Position numbers and translations under genes: made by a program. Positions 3,347-9,311 of a stretch of 12,708 nt of DNA are shown piece after piece; the stretch's first letter is position 1; the number at the start of each line of letters is the position of its first letter. The notes beneath the pieces were generated by a model, which saw only the letters and a program-made list of their open reading frames with translations, did not search any database and had not been told where the DNA came from. Source of the DNA: a virus (taxonomy: Duplodnaviria; Heunggongvirae; Uroviricota; Caudoviricetes); the IMG/VR virus record IMGVR_UViG_2548876945_000010, positions 1 through 12,708 of that record. The stretch is one strand, 5' to 3'.

Positions 3347-3618
3347 GTATTCGTATCGAAATTGGCGAACGTTATGTCGTTACCAGTGACAGCTTTCAGT
3401 TTATTCTCCACGAGAAAAAGAGAGCGGAAAGCGGTAAAAACGCCGGTCAGGAATGGCTGGCGGTGGTTGGTTATTACCCGAAATTAAGCCAGCTCGTTTC
3501 CGGCCTGATGCATCACGATATTCTGACCGGAAGCGCAAAGTCTTTTGCTGATTTAAACGCGCAGGTTGAGCAACTCAGCAGGCGTTGTTCAGAGGCTTTT
3601 GGCTCATATGGCCGTTAA
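3343..3618 (+). CDS. hypothetical early protein (position of P2 orf83)
   Basis: ATG 3343 overlaps the previous stop (ATGA); 91 aa; 3' end overlaps the start of gene A. Confidence 0.5.
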   Translation: MSIRIEIGERYVVTSDSFQFILHEKKRAESGKNAGQEWLAVVGYYPKLSQLVSGLMHHDILTGSAKSFADLNAQVEQLSRRCSEAFGSYGR

Positions 3619-5779
3619 AGCCTCCGGGCGTTTTGTCCCTCCGTCAGCATTTGCCGCAGGCACCGGTAAGACGTTTGCCGGTGCTTATGCATGGAACGCG
3701 CCACGCGAGGCTGTCGGGCGCGAAAGACCCCTTACACGTGATGAGATGCGTCAGGTGCAAGGTGTTTTATCCACGATTAACCGCCTGCCTTACTTTTTGC
3801 GCTCGCTGTTTACTTCACGCTATGACTACATCCGGCGCAATAAAAGCCCGGTACACGGGTTTTATTTCCTCACATCCACTTTTCAGCGTCGTTTATGGCC
3901 GCGCATTGAGCGCGTGAATCAGCGCCATGAAATGAACACCGACGCGTCGTTGCTGTTTCTGGCAGAGCGCGACCAGTATGCGCGCCTGCCGGGGATGAAT
4001 GACAAGGAGCTGAAAAAGTTTGCCGCCCGTATCTCATCACAGCTTTTCATGATGTATGAGGAACTCTGCGATGCCTGGGTGGATGCGCATGGCGAGAAAG
4101 AATCGCTGTTTACGGATGATGCGCAGGCTCACCTCTATGGTCATGTTGCTGGCGCTGCACGTGCTTTCAATATTTCCCCGCTTTACTGGAAAAAATACCG
4201 TAAAGGACAGATGACCACGAGGCAGGCATATTCTGCAATTGCTCGTCTGTTTAACGATGAGTGGTGGACTCATCAGCTTAAAGGCCAGCGTATGCGCTGG
4301 CATGAAGCGTTACTGATAGCTGTCGGGGAGGTCAATAAAGACCGTTCTCCTTATGCCAGTAAACACGCCATTCGTGATGTGCGTGCGCGCCGCCAGGCAA
4401 ATCTGGAATTTCTTAAATCGTGTGACCTTGAAAACAGGGAAACCGGCGAGCGCATCGACCTTATCAGTAAGGTGATGGGCAGTATTTCTAATCCTGAAAT
4501 TCGCCGGATGGAGCTGATGAACACCATTGCCGGTATTGAGCGTTACGCCGCCGCAGAGGGTGATGTGGGGATGTTTATCACGCTGACCGCGCCGTCAAAG
4601 TATCACCCGACACGTCAGGTCAGAAAAGGCGAAAGTAAAACCGTTCAGCTTAATCACGGCTGGAACGATGAGGCATTTAATCCAAAGGATGCGCAGCGTT
4701 ATCTCTGCCGCATCTGGAGCCTGATGCGCACGGCATTCAAGGATAATGATTTACAGGTCTACGGTTTGCGTGTCGTCGAGCCACACCACGACGGAACGCC
4801 GCACTGGCATATGATGCTTTTTTGTAATCCACGCCAGCGTAACCAGATTATTGAAATCATGCGTCGCTACGCGCTCAAAGAGGATGGCGACGAAAGAGGA
4901 GCTGCGCGAAACCGTTTTCAGGCAAAACACCTTAACCGGGGCGGTGCTGCGGGGTATATCGCAAAATACATCTCAAAAAACATCGATGGCTATGCACTGG
5001 ATGGTCAGCTCGATAATGATACCGGCAGGCCGCTGAAAGATACTGCTGCGGCTGTTACCGCATGGGCGTCAACGTGGCGAATTCCGCAATTTAAAACGAT
5101 TGGCCTGCCGACAATGGGGGCTTACCGTGAACTACGCAAATTGCCTCGCGGCGTCAGTATTGCTGATGAGTTTGACGAACGCGTCGAGGCTGCTCGCGCT
5201 GCCGCAGACAGTGGTGATTTTGCGTTGTATATCAGCGCGCAGGGTGGGGCAAATGTCCCGCGCGATTGTCAGACTGTCAGGGTTGCCCGTAGCCCGTCGG
5301 ATGACGTTAACGAGTACGAGGAAGAAGTCGAGAGAGTGGTCGGCATTTACGCGCCGCATCTCGGCGCGCGTCATATTCATATCACCAGAACGACGGACTG
5401 GCGCATTGTGCCGAAAGTTCCGGTCGTTGAGCCTTTGACTTTAAAAAGCGGCATCGCCGCGCCTCGGAGTCCTGTCAATAACTGTGGAAAGTTCACCGGC
5501 GGTGACGTTCCGGTTATGCACCCTACACCGTCTGAGCATGCCGCAGCGGTGTTAAATCTGGTTGATAGTGGTGTTATCGGATGGGATGACCCGGAAGTTG
5601 TGACGGTGCTCAGGAGTGCATTAAAACATGGTGCACCGAGACCGAATTGGCAACAAAGAAACTGCGAACCATTAAAACCGTACCAGATAGCGCCATCAGG
5701 GCGGATGACAAAGGCTGAACGTTCGCAGATTCCACGCATCCATTTCGAGCTGGCACTAATTGGTAAAACCTATCAATAG
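3608..5779 (+). CDS. A: rolling-circle replication initiator endonuclease (P2 gpA-like, HUH superfamily)
   Basis: Large ORF; I place the start at ATG 3608 (MAVKASGRFVPP..., as I recall P2 A) rather than the track ATG 3566. It has an HUH-like motif PHWHMMLF (His codons 4802..4810) and the paired-tyrosine motif GYIAKYISK (Tyr codons 4955..4957 and 4967..4969), similar to phiX174 gpA YxxKY. Confidence 0.85.
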   Translation: MAVKASGRFVPPSAFAAGTGKTFAGAYAWNAPREAVGRERPLTRDEMRQVQGVLSTINRLPYFLRSLFTSRYDYIRRNKSPVHGFYFLTSTFQRRLWPRIERVNQRHEMNTDASLLFLAERDQYARLPGMNDKELKKFAARISSQLFMMYEELCDAWVDAHGEKESLFTDDAQAHLYGHVAGAARAFNISPLYWKKYRKGQMTTRQAYSAIARLFNDEWWTHQLKGQRMRWHEALLIAVGEVNKDRSPYASKHAIRDVRARRQANLEFLKSCDLENRETGERIDLISKVMGSISNPEIRRMELMNTIAGIERYAAAEGDVGMFITLTAPSKYHPTRQVRKGESKTVQLNHGWNDEAFNPKDAQRYLCRIWSLMRTAFKDNDLQVYGLRVVEPHHDGTPHWHMMLFCNPRQRNQIIEIMRRYALKEDGDERGAARNRFQAKHLNRGGAAGYIAKYISKNIDGYALDGQLDNDTGRPLKDTAAAVTAWASTWRIPQFKTIGLPTMGAYRELRKLPRGVSIADEFDERVEAARAAADSGDFALYISAQGGANVPRDCQTVRVARSPSDDVNEYEEEVERVVGIYAPHLGARHIHITRTTDWRIVPKVPVVEPLTLKSGIAAPRSPVNNCGKFTGGDVPVMHPTPSEHAAAVLNLVDSGVIGWDDPEVVTVLRSALKHGAPRPNWQQRNCEPLKPYQIAPSGRMTKAERSQIPRIHFELALIGKTYQ

Positions 5780-5882
5780 TGATTTAATGAAATTTCGGAG
5801 TCATAAATATTGTGTATTTAACTAGATGATTGCAATATAAGTGCTTATTATTTATGCGATTATAGCCATAACGGAGCTGAGT

Positions 5883-6812
5883 ATGAGTGTTGCAAGGCAT
5901 CATCATTTTTTATCCCAATGTTATTTGAAAGGGTTTACAAGTAATGGGGGGAAAAAATCAAAATTAACTGTAATAGATTTAAAGGAGCGCAAAACCTTTG
6001 AGAGTAATACTCGCAATGTCGGGGGGGTTAGAGATTTCAACCGATTAGAATTGGATGGAGTTGACCCAAACTATCTCGAGAGTTCTCTTGCAGAGTTTGA
6101 AGGCAGTGTCGCTACTCATTTAAGAAAACTTGAGGAGGGGGGCGAGTTTTCAGGCGAAACCAAAGATGTTATTCTGGAGTTTATTTCCTTATTGGCAATA
6201 CGTACGCCTGCTCAGCGAGAACATTTATCATCTCCATTGAAACAAATAGCAAAGTTTATCATGAAATCCTCAGTTAGTTCGGCTGAGCGTTGGGACGATT
6301 GCAAATTAGCTTATGAGAAAGAAATGGGTGAGTCTTTGCCATATGATCTCGCTTACGAAAAAATTAAAAATTTTGTGGATGGGGATAATTTCGAAATCAA
6401 TGTAATCAGAGAGTTCATGATAGATATGGAAATGAAATGTGTACCTGTTATCACCAAGTTGTTGCATCAACGCAACTGGTCTCTTATGACCATATCTGAT
6501 GGGCAAGGGTCATTTATAACTTCAGATAACCCAGTTTGCTTAATGTGGACTAATCCTGAATTAGCACGAGGCCCTTATTCCCCCGGGTTTGGTGTAAAAG
6601 ACACTTTAGTTTTGTTCCCAGTATCAAAAAACCTTCTTTTGGCGGGCGAGTTTGATGGTCATGAGGGTGTATTCAGTTGTAATGAGGAGCAGGCTGCGGT
6701 CTTCAATACTTCAGTCATTCGGCATACCGCAGAAAGAATATTTTCATCTAATGATAATTTCAAATTTTTAGACTCATCTAAAAAAATGAAGCAAGGCAAA
6801 AGCCTGGTTTGA
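5883..6812 (+). CDS. AT-rich cargo gene at the P2 tin/old hotspot; DUF4238-like candidate anti-phage defence protein
   Basis: 309-aa ORF from ATG 5883 (GGAG upstream; the track GTG at 5841 is less likely). N-terminus MSVARHHHFLSQCYLKGF fits the HHxxxQxYLKxF signature I associate with DUF4238. Strongly AT-rich unlike the flanking phage genes, and located between the A stop and cos. Confidence 0.65.
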   Translation: MSVARHHHFLSQCYLKGFTSNGGKKSKLTVIDLKERKTFESNTRNVGGVRDFNRLELDGVDPNYLESSLAEFEGSVATHLRKLEEGGEFSGETKDVILEFISLLAIRTPAQREHLSSPLKQIAKFIMKSSVSSAERWDDCKLAYEKEMGESLPYDLAYEKIKNFVDGDNFEINVIREFMIDMEMKCVPVITKLLHQRNWSLMTISDGQGSFITSDNPVCLMWTNPELARGPYSPGFGVKDTLVLFPVSKNLLLAGEFDGHEGVFSCNEEQAAVFNTSVIRHTAERIFSSNDNFKFLDSSKKMKQGKSLV

Positions 6813-6949
6813 TAGCGGTTTTTCTATGATTTTACTAGGAGAATTCTACCCTTAATCAGTGTGTTTAAAATGATTAATTGTCATAACATTTTTTCATTTT
6901 TAGGTGTGCCTAGAAATGCATTCAATTGCATGCGTTTTCCTCCCCTGTT

Positions 6950-7093
6950 GCGTCTGAGCGCCACCAGTGCCGGCGCGCCTCCGGTGTATTCGTGCACCTG
7001 CATTAAAACCGACCCATAAAGCGGGCAGGCGAGGCGGGGAAAGCACTGCGCGCTGGCGGTGGTGCTGATTTTATTTTTTCAGCGTCTGAGCGC
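6950..7093. repeat. 12-bp direct repeat GCGTCTGAGCGC flanking cos (6950..6961 and 7082..7093)
   Basis: Exact 12-bp copies lie 67 bp upstream and 36 bp downstream of the cohesive-end sequence; possible terminase recognition elements. Confidence 0.4.
7028..7046. other. cos: cos cohesive-end site (P2-type 19-nt GGCGAGGCGGGGAAAGCAC)
   Basis: Exact match to the P2 19-nt cohesive end as I recall it, in the expected place about 170 bp from the 3' end of portal gene Q. Confidence 0.75.
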
Positions 7094-7188
7094 GTCGTGG
7101 CGGCGTTTAGATTTTGCGCCGGGGCGTTGCTGTGTCTGCGGGCTGTTTTGTGCGGTGGTGAGCGTGTGAGGGCGTGATGACTGGGTGT

Positions 7189-7210
7189 AAAAAAGCCGCC
7201 CGCAGGCGGC
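7189..7210 (-). terminator. intrinsic terminator downstream of Q (end of leftward P-Q operon)
   Basis: On the minus strand: GCCGCC-TGCG-GGCGGC hairpin (7210..7195) followed by TTTTTT (7194..7189), starting 5 nt after the Q stop codon. Confidence 0.6.
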
Positions 7211-7215
7211 GATGT

Positions 7216-8250
7216 TCAGCCGTTGTCAGTGTCCAGTGAGTAGTTTTTAAAGCGGATGACCTCCTGACCGAGCCAGCCGTTTATCTCGCGGATCCTGTCC
7301 TGTAACGGGATAAGCTCATTGCGGACAAAGACCTTTGCCACTTTCTCAATATCACCCAGCGACCCGACGTTCTCCGGCTTGCCGCCCATCAACTGAAAGG
7401 GGATGCGGTGCGCGTCCAGCAGGTCAGCGGCGCTGGCTTTTTTGATATTAAAAAAATCGTCCTTCGTTGCCACTTCACTGAGCGGGATAATTTTAATGCC
7501 GTCGGCTTTTCCCTGCGGGGCATAGAGAAACAGATTTTTAAAGTTGTTGCGGCCTTTCGACTTGACCATGTTTTCGCGAAGCATTTCGATATCGTTGCGA
7601 TCCTGCACGGCATCAGTGACGTACATGATGTATCCGGCATGTGCGCCGTTTTCGTAATACTTGCGGCGGAACAGCGTGGCTGACTCATTCAGCCAGGCAG
7701 AGTTAAGGGCGCTGAGATATTCCGGCATGCCGTACAGCTCCTGATTAATATCCGGCTCCAGCAGATGAAACACGGAGCCGGGCGCGAAAGGTGTCGGCTC
7801 GTTGAAGGACGGCACCCACCAGTAAACATCCTCCTCCACGCCACGGCGGGTATATTTTGCCGGTGAGGTTTCCAGTCTGATGACCTTACCGGTGGTGCTG
7901 TAACGCTTTTCCAGAAACGCATTACCGAACACCAGAAAATCCAGCGCAAAGCGGCTGAAATCCTGCTGGGAAAGCCACGGATGCGGGATAAATGTCGAGG
8001 CCAGAATATTACGTTTGACGTAAATCGGTGAGCTGTGATGCACGGCAGCACGCAGGCTTTTTGCCAGACCGGTAAAGCTGACCGGTGGCTCATACCATCT
8101 GCCGTTACTGATGCACTCGACGTAATCCAGAATGTCACGGCGGTCGAGTACCGGCACCGGCTCGCCAAAGGTGAATGCTTCCATTTTCGGGGCGTTGGCG
8201 GTCATTTTTTTTGCCGCAGGTTGCGGTGTTTTCCCTTTTTTCTTGCTCAT
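7216..8250 (-). CDS. Q: portal protein (P2 gpQ-like)
   Basis: 344-aa ORF, ATG at 8250..8248 with GGAG upstream, stop 7218..7216. Length equals P2 Q and it sits next to cos and the terminase gene; its start overlaps the P stop (TGATG). Confidence 0.9.
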   Translation of the reverse strand: MSKKKGKTPQPAAKKMTANAPKMEAFTFGEPVPVLDRRDILDYVECISNGRWYEPPVSFTGLAKSLRAAVHHSSPIYVKRNILASTFIPHPWLSQQDFSRFALDFLVFGNAFLEKRYSTTGKVIRLETSPAKYTRRGVEEDVYWWVPSFNEPTPFAPGSVFHLLEPDINQELYGMPEYLSALNSAWLNESATLFRRKYYENGAHAGYIMYVTDAVQDRNDIEMLRENMVKSKGRNNFKNLFLYAPQGKADGIKIIPLSEVATKDDFFNIKKASAADLLDAHRIPFQLMGGKPENVGSLGDIEKVAKVFVRNELIPLQDRIREINGWLGQEVIRFKNYSLDTDNG

Positions 8251-9311
8251 CAGTAAAACTCCAGAATGGTGGATGTCAGCGGGGTGCTGATACCGGCGGT
8301 GAGTGGCTCATTTAACAGGGCGTGCATGGTCGCCCAGGCGAGGTCGGCGTGGCTGGCTTCCTCGCTGCGGCTGGCCTCATAGGTGGCGCTGCGCCCGCTG
8401 CTGGTCATGGTCTTGCGGATAGCCATAAACGAGCTGGTGATGTCGGTGGCGCTGACGTCATATTCCAGACAGCCACGGCGGATAACGTCTTTTGCCTTGA
8501 GCACCATTGCGGTTTTCATTTCCGGCGTGTAGCGGATATCACGCGCGGCGGGATAGAACGAGCGCACGAGCTGGAACACGCCGACACCGAGGCCGGTGGC
8601 ATCAATACCGATGTATTCGACGTTATATTTTTCGGTGAGTTTGCGGATGGATTCCGCCTGGGTGGCAAAGTCCATACCTTTCCACTGGTGACGCTCAAGT
8701 ATTCTGAATTTGCCACCGGCCACCACCGGCGGTGCCAGTACCACGCATCCGGCGCTGTCGCCACGGTGTGACGGGTCGTAACCAATCCATACCGGTCGGG
8801 AGCCGAACGGATTTGCGGCAAACGGCGCATAGTCTTCCCATTCTTCCAGCGTGTCGACCATGCAGCGTTGCAGCTCCTCGAACGGGAATACCGATGCCTT
8901 GTCATCAACAAATTCACACATGAACAGGTTTTTAAAATCGTCGGCGCTGTTTTCGCGTTTAAGCTGCTCAATGTCGAACAATGTGCAGCCACCTTTCAGG
9001 GCGTCCTCAATGGTGACAATCTGCCGCCACTGGCCGTCCGCACAGAGAAGACCTCCGGCAAGGGCGTTATGACTGACGTCGATTTCCACGCGTTCGGCGG
9101 CGCTGGCGCGTCCCCGGTTGAACAGTTCACCTGACCAGAACGGGTAGGCGTCGTGCGCCAGCGTGGACGGGGTGGAGAAATAGGTCGAGCGCAGGTGACT
9201 CTGTGAGGCCATACCTGATGCCACCTTACGCAGTACCTGAAAAGCCGCGCTGCATCGTGAGTCAAATCTGATGAAGACCTTTGCGCTACAGGGCGACACG
9301 CTTGACGCCAT
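8250..9311 (-). CDS. P: terminase large subunit (P2 gpP-like), C-terminal portion only; N-terminal ATPase region apparently missing
   Basis: 353-aa ORF directly upstream of and coupled to Q. Contains VWIGYDPSHRGDSAGCVVL, like the start of a terminase nuclease domain; no Walker A (GxxxxGKT/S) is present. P2 P is about 590 aa as I recall, and the first ~15-20 codons of this ORF overlap the X gene on the opposite strand so are probably not P-derived. Confidence 0.6.
   Translation of the reverse strand: MASSVSPCSAKVFIRFDSRCSAAFQVLRKVASGMASQSHLRSTYFSTPSTLAHDAYPFWSGELFNRGRASAAERVEIDVSHNALAGGLLCADGQWRQIVTIEDALKGGCTLFDIEQLKRENSADDFKNLFMCEFVDDKASVFPFEELQRCMVDTLEEWEDYAPFAANPFGSRPVWIGYDPSHRGDSAGCVVLAPPVVAGGKFRILERHQWKGMDFATQAESIRKLTEKYNVEYIGIDATGLGVGVFQLVRSFYPAARDIRYTPEMKTAMVLKAKDVIRRGCLEYDVSATDITSSFMAIRKTMTSSGRSATYEASRSEEASHADLAWATMHALLNEPLTAGISTPLTSTILEFY

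Follow-up and report, generated by a model that had tools for sequence, protein, structure and literature searches.

Phage P2 and its satellite P4 prefer closed circular monomers as packaging substrate, and cleavage of these at cos leaves cohesive ends of 19 nt (PMC2231350). A 55-bp core common to the P2 and P4 sites is credited to Ziermann and Calendar (1990) in passages of three later papers (PMC5694545; PMC9594776; PMC2231350). Packaging from cos constrains the size of the substrate (PMC6893505). It does not always depend on an intact prophage. Sp13 of E. coli O157 Sakai is a defective P2-like prophage from which most morphogenesis genes are gone, and it is still packaged (PMC2669165).

The locus described here has a cos of this kind inside a prophage that has lost much of its own packaging machinery. 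Below, the host element is compared with its nearest relatives, and the cos region with those of P2, 186 and P4. Coordinates refer to the window, by which we mean the whole 12,708-nt stretch of DNA that was analysed. The features are collected in Table 1.

Table 1. Genes and sequence elements in and around the cos site (positions in the window; signed numbers are distances from the cut).
Feature	Position	Strand	Remarks
Gene A	3566-5779
Cargo gene, DUF4238	5841-6812	+	Pfam DUF4238, E = 5e-39; sits in cos-proximal hotspot
Degenerate distal box, TGCCT	6907-6911	+	4/5 matches; in relatives [TC]GCAT, placed at -124 (37 loci) or -120 (18 loci)
Distal TGCAT box (-111)	6917-6921	+	G26, A28 and T29 invariant in the 17-region alignment; 49/68 species-representative loci
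Distal TGCAT box (-101)	6927-6931	+	G36, C37, A38 and T39 invariant in the 17-region alignment; 44/68 loci
Spacer	6932-6998	+	Sequence variable, length constant; between distal boxes and core; holds left 12-mer
Left copy of GCGTCTGAGCGC (-78)	6950-6961	+	Exact match; sequence of one lineage
55-bp cos core	6999-7053	+	Opened by proximal TGCAT box (6999-7003); most columns invariant or nearly so in the 17-region alignment
19-nt cohesive end	7028-7046	+	Equals annotated P2 cosL; predicted nicks 7027/7028 (top) and 7046/7047 (bottom)
T-rich tract	7068-7081	+	Directly before right 12-mer; A/T-rich tract also kept to the right of cos in P2- and Klebsiella-type loci and in many satellites
Right copy of GCGTCTGAGCGC (+54)	7082-7093	+	Belongs to a right-flank element that one sub-lineage conserves
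Third, imperfect copy, GCGTGTGAGGGC (+134)	7162-7173	+	Usual partner of right copy, ~80 bp further right
Rho-independent terminator tQ of P-Q operon	7189-7210	-	6-bp GC stem, then T-run; homologous to P2 160-181, annotated tQ
Portal gene Q, intact	7216-8250	-	Pfam Phage_portal; collinear with pro483 gp13
Truncated large-terminase gene P (P')	8250-9311	-	Terminase_6C complete; Terminase_6N profile positions 110-215 of 215

The Host Element

The window is a P2-like (Peduovirus) prophage, and its nearest relative is Escherichia phage pro483 (98.2% identity). Its genes run in the order integrase, repressor region, B, A, DUF4238 cargo, cos, Q, P', X, holin, lysis and baseplate, and the stretch from A through cargo and cos to Q and P is ordered as in P2 and pro483. 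A cargo hotspot between gpA and gpQ has been described (Rousset et al., 2022; PMC9122126), and the location of the DUF4238 gene agrees with it. The ORFs of int, gene A and Q are all full length. A scan of 6700-7300 for promoters and terminators left tQ as the sole convincing element, and a search of the whole window against Rfam gave no family above threshold.

The 12.7 kb of the window correspond to 19.1 kb of pro483, from which it differs by three clean deletions whose junctions overlap by 2-5 bp. The first (4265 bp, pro483 9346-13610, junction at about 9243) removes the N-terminal ~260 residues of gpP, together with O, N, M and most of L. The second (1412 bp relative to pro483) takes out lysC, R, S and part of V, and the third (764 bp relative to pro483) most of J. 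Gone, then, are the small terminase (gpM), the start of the gpP ATPase domain, some tail genes and the genes for capsid, scaffold and head completion. An intact, self-packaging P2-like prophage has complete P, O, N, M and L, and the window element does not. The remark of an earlier note on this DNA that its terminase gene looks incomplete was correct: about 4.3 kb are missing relative to pro483, and the P' product keeps the whole nuclease domain, having lost the start of the ATPase domain with its N-terminus.

The first deletion is real in an independent public assembly, because exactly the same truncated TerL protein is encoded in GCA_002110225.1, a natural draft, where it lies beside tail gene X and the holin gene on NCBI contig ADJW01000097.1. 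The collapsed arrangement occurs in none of 5426 complete E. coli genomes; the best matches there have 99.9% identity and fall into four pieces spanning 19.9 kb. The flank to the left of cos is 100% identical to prophages in complete genomes that have the full, undeleted 19.9-kb arrangement.

Could the element be a P4-like satellite? Such satellites were defined by the helper-exploitation genes psu, sid and delta and an alpha primase, with phage structural genes absent. This identity was rejected, as the window is collinear with phage pro483 and phage structural genes are present. Among the loci compared, psu adjoins cos in satellites only.

The Cohesive End and the cos Core

The 19-mer GGCGAGGCGGGGAAAGCAC occurs once in the window. 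It is the same as bases 1-19 of the P2 record NC_001895, where they are annotated as "cosL; left cohesive end", so that the earlier note had given the P2 end correctly. Any match with up to three mismatches was present in just 2 of 200 shuffles. Virion-derived genome records of relatives begin and end at the same point. The base equivalent to 7028 is the record start in P2, L-413C, fiAA91-ss (annotated cosL), R18C, PSP3, EtG and others, and the records of PSP3 and SEN1 end at the equivalent of 7027, with 29/29 identity to 6999-7027. In these relatives, virion ends thus map to the cos sequence. The cut geometry given for 7028-7046 is taken from the annotation in the phage 186 record.

Seventeen cos regions were aligned, namely those of the window, P2, 186, P4, a Klebsiella phage, two Yersinia/E. 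coli phages and ten metagenomic loci. All the invariant columns fall inside row positions 107-161 (6999-7053), barring two short boxes farther left and a single column that stands alone in the right flank. This conserved block has the same length as the published 55-bp P2/P4 core. In the window the core differs from that of P2 at four positions, from P4 at five and from 186 at three, and every mismatch is at a site that varies among functional phages. The exact 55-bp combination is absent from the isolated phages in the collection (best 98.2% over the full length). Its left 29 bp are equal to PSP3/SEN1 and its right 26 bp to P2. The site has the gene A/cargo hotspot on one side and the Q and P genes, transcribed convergently, on the other, and this position fits a P2-family cos. 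The assignment is secure because of the identity of the 19-mer, the ends of the related records, the 55-bp block and the confinement of mismatches to variable sites. By sequence, 6999-7053 with 7028-7046 is an ordinary P2-family cos, a kind of site that is already known, and in this the earlier note is borne out.

The flanks resemble each of the described sites in part. In P2 (NC_001895, cosL/cosR) cos adjoins Q as it does in the window, identity in the right flank exceeds 86% as far as tQ, and boxes lie at -123, -111, -101 and -29. However, the left spacer of P2 (-95 to -36) is unrelated, being an old promoter region without the left 12-mer, its right copy reads GCGTCTCAGCGC, and the first distal box is degenerate in the window. 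Phage 186 (NC_001317) and 186-like Yersinia phages have a left flank homologous to that of the window over ~130 bp. In its left half the core hardly differs (3 mismatches/55 bp), the TGCAT boxes are in the same positions, and CGTCTGAG copies are found at +57 and +135; the counterpart of the right 12-mer in 186 is TCGTCTGAGCGC. In contrast, the cohesive end of 186 differs at 2 of 19 positions (GGCGTGG...GCAT) and 186 has no left 12-mer, its best match being 7/12. Alignment to P2 and 186 therefore upholds the cohesive end proposed for the window, identical to that of P2, and does not uphold the left repeat, which is absent from both phages.

The satellite P4 (NC_001609) and its relatives share with the window the core, the TGCAT boxes and a homologous left flank (e.g., the common TTGCATGCGTTTTCCT), and P4 also has a left-hand motif core, CGGTCTGAGCGT, at -52. 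To the right, P4 parts from the window just past +26, at the start of its cargo hotspot, and has no right copies; on the left, its copy sits 26 bp nearer the cut. The window, for its part, has a P2-type phage genome (A, Q, P and lysis genes) and is not a satellite.

The Two 12-mers

The earlier note placed two exact copies of GCGTCTGAGCGC at 6950-6961 and 7082-7093, and both are there, on the same strand and 132 bp apart. No further match with up to one mismatch exists in the window. The pair exceeds what random composition would give, because the expected count is 0.06 and two or more matches were seen in 0 of 200 shuffles. A longer duplication or conversion tract around the 12-mers was rejected: identity between the copies stops exactly at 12 bp and the flanking bases are unrelated. 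The third copy, GCGTGTGAGGGC, matches at 10 of 12 positions and was not listed in the note.

Conservation of the right copy was followed in 121 cos regions, made up of the window and 120 IMG/VR loci with the exact P2 cohesive end. The loci were sorted by their neighbour genes, and those with a portal gene to the right of cos form the phage-type class (n = 93). At +54 the exact 12-mer is present in 45 of the 121 regions and the P2 variant GCGTCTCAGCGC in 15; others have CCTGAGCGC forms. The core CT[GC]AGC lies within +100 in 83 of the 93 phage-type loci. On the forward strand within 300 bp on either side of cos, the hexamer CTGAGC is found almost only at -74, -48, +57/58 and +67/68. The right block is kept in 186, in a 186-like Yersinia phage and in the Klebsiella phage, where the remaining flank is only ~70% identical. 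The longer motif CGT[CG]TGAG is found around the P2 cos at +55 in 46 loci and at +134/135 in 58. Copies are at +57 and +135 in 186 and at +56 and +135 in GCS667, and both right-side copies are present in four species-representative genomes (L167, L171, L191 and L192).

Family-wide the picture is different. Over 54 unique true cos loci, sampled as one genome per species, the right 12-mer (+54 to +66) carries 0.06 bit, and it is absent from Erwinia ENT90, Aeromonas LPM4 and a Ralstonia phage. It was rejected as a family-wide element on both counts. In about nine phage-type loci, cargo is inserted right after +26 and the motif is on neither side. By these comparisons the right copy is a right-flank element of the P2/186/Klebsiella-type sub-lineage only.

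The left copy lies in the spacer between the distal boxes and the core. Family-wide, information content is 0.42 bit in the spacer (-96 to -41), vs. 0.83 in the boxes and 1.54 in the core. The distance from the boxes to cos is constant within about 1-3 bp across 45 left-flank clusters. The best left-hand match to the 12-mer in P2 is 7/12, the same as in 186. The left core motif is found in only one of the 93 phage-type loci, a pro483-like one (L111). The left flank itself (6813-7027) is present in 14 of the 5426 complete E. coli genomes, always with at least 99% identity, among ~2000 genomes with some P2-like match. It is homologous to the flanks of 186, the Klebsiella phage and P4. The columns aligned with the left copy read CTGGTTGTGCGT, TGTGACGATCGC and TTCTGCAAACCG in these three and GCTTATGAGCGT in YpM50, and P2 is unrelated here. 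The same columns are unconserved in the 17-region alignment, and YpM50, a close relative in the same cluster, matches at 8 of 12. Purifying selection on the left 12-mer was rejected, since within its own cluster the bases beside it are at least as well conserved. Judged by its absence from P2 and 186, its presence in 1 of 93 phage-type loci, its rarity and its variable columns, the left copy is neither a required nor a general cos element.

A GC-rich inverted repeat at 6958-6976 shows no excess stability as a hairpin (-8.4 kcal/mol, z = -0.16 vs. shuffles). In ENT90 and RE2010 the positions homologous to this repeat do resemble true terminators.

There may be some selective or mechanistic cause behind the left copy, because 12 bp of identity are unlikely by chance and because GTCTGAGCGC is found with at least 9/10 matches in the left spacers of 2 of the 45 clusters, vs. 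0.056 expected (P about 0.0015). The second of these clusters consists of P4-like satellites. In these, cargo takes the place of the right flank from +26 on, and 19 of 20 loci keep YCTGAGC at -48, even where Psu is only 50-62% identical, which suggests that a left-hand copy can be maintained.

The TGCAT Boxes

The elements that recur across the family lie to the left of the cut. TGCAT boxes are present in 44 of the 45 left-flank clusters, where GCAT starts at about -120/-123, -110, -100 and -28, and in P2, P4 and 186 TGCAT is at -123/-124, -111, -101 and -29. Among 68 species-representative loci, drawn from many enterobacterial genera, [TC]GCAT is found at -124 (37 loci), -120 (18), -111 (49), -101 (44) and -29 (54). 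The pattern is kept in ENT90, in Salmonella RE2010 and in a Ralstonia phage. In the window the -111 and -101 boxes are 10 bp apart and the -101 box is 72 bp from the proximal one, a spacing that would put the boxes roughly on one face of the helix.

Where the box sequence changes it tends to change at several positions together. TGCAT is the form of Enterobacterales and P4 satellites, CCGTCG/A that of Comamonadaceae and Burkholderiales, and CGCATGA that of some Pantoea and Erwinia. In Comamonas aquatica the boxes at -28 and -110 read CCGTCGA and the one at -100 reads CCGTCG. In an Acidovorax genome CCGTCG is found at -28, -38 and -100, with CCGTCA at -110; a Burkholderiales genome carries CCGTCA at both -28 and -100, and in two Pantoea/Erwinia genomes every box position reads CGCATGA. 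In 72 loci taken together, the distal 38 nt contain the proximal 5-mer 151 times, vs. 4 times for the adjacent 38 nt of spacer. The Aeromonas phages are an exception that breaks this covariation, with distal boxes of AAGGATC and a proximal TGCAT.

As far as the aligned sequences can tell, the family-wide accessory element of cos is this phased, co-varying TGCAT array to the left of the cut, and not the 12-mers. Since cos is the common factor of helper phage, satellite and distant relatives, the boxes would be read by the packaging enzyme, most plausibly by the small terminase.

A comparison with lambda is useful here. The lambda cos consists of cosQ, cosN and cosB and has R sites for the small terminase subunit. 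It resembles a P2-type cos in having a nicking site that gives 5' cohesive ends, together with short repeats on one side, an arrangement that might suit an oligomeric small terminase. However, the two have no sequence similarity, the overhang is 12 nt in lambda but 19 nt in P2-type sites, and the preference of P2 and P4 for closed circular monomers is a further difference. The conserved repeats of a P2-type cos, unlike those of lambda, are also on the side away from the terminase genes.

A broader reading can be put forward tentatively, although we regard it as somewhat doubtful. The P2-family cos signal would be the core plus a phased array of a single box (-124, -111, -101 and -29), with a spacer of ~72 bp (~seven helical turns) that is fixed in length but free in sequence, and one protein, probably the small terminase, would read it all. 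Under this reading the CGTSTGAG family would be an accessory of a sub-lineage, not tied to one side of the cut: it is on the right in helpers, on the left in P4-like satellites and on both sides in the lineage of the window. The co-varying array is the only part of this that might be new. The literature searched, to which the key 1990 paper of Ziermann and Calendar does not belong, gave no gpM binding sites or elements outside the 55-bp core and no mention of the TGCAT boxes.

How the Site Might Be Used

The element cannot package itself. Its cos would be usable only with a helper, because gpM, the start of the gpP ATPase domain, capsid, scaffold, head-completion and some tail genes are lost. 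The likely course of events can be modelled on what is established for P2, P4 and 186. Once the prophage had excised and circularised, the circular monomer would be nicked in a staggered fashion by a P2-type terminase (gpM plus gpP), at the positions given in Table 1, and the DNA would be packaged. A co-resident or infecting P2-like helper would supply the missing functions, and the likelier recognition array would be the TGCAT boxes on the left (near -124, -111 and -101), which share a helical phase with the -29 box. Packaging by a P2-like helper is plausible, given derepression and a total length that suits the capsid. We consider it highly probable that this account is right as a whole, i.e., that the window has a P2-family cos, that it could be used only through a helper, that the 12-mers are not a required pair and that the left boxes are the better candidates for recognition.

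What are the alternatives? The earlier note saw in the exact 12-mers a matched pair of terminase-binding sites that brackets the cut, and this version of events would need both. That 12 bp recur exactly and in the same orientation 132 bp apart is beyond chance, and the right copy does belong to an island of conservation common to P2, 186 and the Klebsiella phage. Against this, P2 and 186 are functional phages without the left copy. In the phage-type loci the contrast is between 1/93 on the left and 83/93 for the right core motif, and the left copy belongs to one rare lineage, its columns being unconserved in the 17-region alignment. The right copy is itself nearly uninformative family-wide (0.06 bit) and is absent or displaced in phage-type loci with cargo at +26. 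The repeat interpretation largely fails, and a matched pair of required sites appears very improbable. A milder proposal is that the left copy is a functional, recently gained extra member of the CGTSTGAG family, whose redundancy lets inserted cargo part the right flank from the core. The over-representation of the motif in left spacers and its retention by P4-like satellites, even those with a divergent Psu, fit this proposal. Two of the nine IMG/VR loci that have the window-type left flank and left copy (L132 and L133) carry cargo at +26, in L133 the right motif is displaced by 1.3 kb, and CGT[CG]TGAGCG is kept in two sub-lineages of the window's cluster. However, nine other phage-type loci with cargo at +26 have the motif on neither side, YpM50 of the same cluster has lost it, and the independent lineages number only two. 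Moreover, the block kept in the satellites overlaps an arm of a GC-rich hairpin, which is possibly the conserved feature instead, and L132, L133 and loci like them are predicted prophages that may not be viable. Overall, a gained and functional left element seems unlikely.

A different kind of doubt concerns not the 12-mers but the whole site. Perhaps cos is a dead relic in a decaying prophage, e.g., one that is too small to package or has lost excision or replication. Three independent deletions in morphogenesis genes are what decay would look like, and there is the limit on the size of cos-packaged DNA (PMC6893505). If the rest of the element resembles pro483 (29.2 kb), its length would be ~22.8 kb vs. 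33.6 kb for P2, and this may be limiting for packaging. On the other hand, the cos region is undecayed, and its left flank is identical to that of prophages with the full arrangement. The int, gene A and Q ORFs are full length, and a P2-like prophage that is more degraded is packaged in O157 Sakai (PMC2669165). A relic is thus improbable, though clearly less so than the matched pair, and helper-dependent use of an ordinary P2-family cos is preferred.

Implications

The finding itself is of little weight. The prophage is decaying and its cos is of the textbook P2 kind, and there are earlier reports of defective P2-like prophages that are packaged with the aid of a helper. Its value for annotation is that the site marks the exact virion end, at 7027/7028. 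The element keeps a cis-acting mobilisation signal along with its integrase and replication genes, without terminase and capsid genes. P2/P4 cosmids have been engineered for antimicrobial delivery, and the efficiency of transduction varies with the amount of cos flank included (PMC9594776). A map of the conserved flank elements, i.e., the TGCAT boxes, the fixed spacer length and the optional CGTSTGAG copies, could guide the design of such cosmids. It would also offer a testable model in which one terminase recognises both helper and satellite.

The TGCAT box array and the cos spacer

To the left of the cos cut lies a phased array of TGCAT boxes (see table), the positions of which are constant in P2, P4 and 186 and in phages of Klebsiella, Erwinia, Salmonella and Ralstonia (L004-L263 among the cos loci compared with the window). 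The array includes a 65 bp spacer that is variable in sequence, while the box positions stay fixed. The boxes themselves can differ between lineages, and in these cases the distal and proximal sequences co-vary: both are CCGTCG in Comamonadaceae and CGCATGA in some Pantoea and Erwinia.

A different arrangement is found in Aeromonas P2-like phages (L140, phage LPM4; L176, a MAG). Three copies of AAGGATC replace the TGCAT boxes at -130 to -92 and a further copy lies right of cos at +80. The proximal box is still TGCAT at both loci.

In ENT90 (L141) and RE2010 (L142), the spacer contains a GC-rich hairpin that is clearly recognisable, with a T-run behind it, at about -70 to -40. This looks like a terminator directed at cos. 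At the homologous position of the window, no more than a weak remnant is left.

Features around cos and deletion sites. Offsets are distances from the cos cut at 7027/7028.
Feature	Position	Remarks
TGCAT box array	window 6907-6931 and 6999-7003	phased, about -124, -111, -101 and -29 from cut
CGT[CG]TGAG pair	window 7082-7093 and 7162-7173; 186 at +57 and +135	same strand
DUF4238 gene	window 5841-6812	cargo of the cos-proximal hotspot
TCCCGGCGCGG-YCTGAGC block	P4 junction (L129+L128) at -52	also in satellites such as L014, L022, L041 and L099
Three deletions relative to pro483	window about 9243, about 11139 and about 11867	4265, 1412 and 764 bp

Cohesive end and right flank

The cohesive end of the window is the canonical P2 sequence, whereas that of pro483 (L002, 7131-7149) is the variant GGCGAGGCGGGGATAGCAC, with A to T at position 14. 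Several related loci share the variant (L132, L133, L134). In the right flank of P2/186-type phages, a T-rich tract precedes two CGT[CG]TGAG copies that are ~80 bp apart. P2-type and 186-type flanks share this conserved pair, their identity elsewhere being ~70%.

Deletions relative to pro483

The three deletions removed the gpP N-terminus, O, N, M, L, lysC, R, S, part of V and most of J, and their junctions show microhomology of 2-5 bp. None of the 5426 complete E. coli genomes contains them. The truncated TerL of the window is also encoded by NCBI contig ADJW01000097.1 (GCA_002110225.1).

Satellites and cargo on either side of cos

Of 20 P4-like satellite loci, 19 retain the TCCCGGCGCGG-YCTGAGC block, very divergent ones included. 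The block faces psu, at about -58 to -43 from the cut, and a GC-rich hairpin overlaps it with its 3' arm. The opposite cos flank of these satellites is cargo, starting at +26.

The DUF4238 cargo with its flank was found in only 14 of the 5426 complete E. coli genomes. In some P2-like prophages, cargo is inserted to the right of cos, between +26 and the portal gene (L012, L021, L054, L095, L100, L101, L132 and L133), exemplified by a low-GC ORF of 333 aa in L133. Across cos from the first insertion point, position +26 provides a second one, with a boundary that matches the P4 hotspot.
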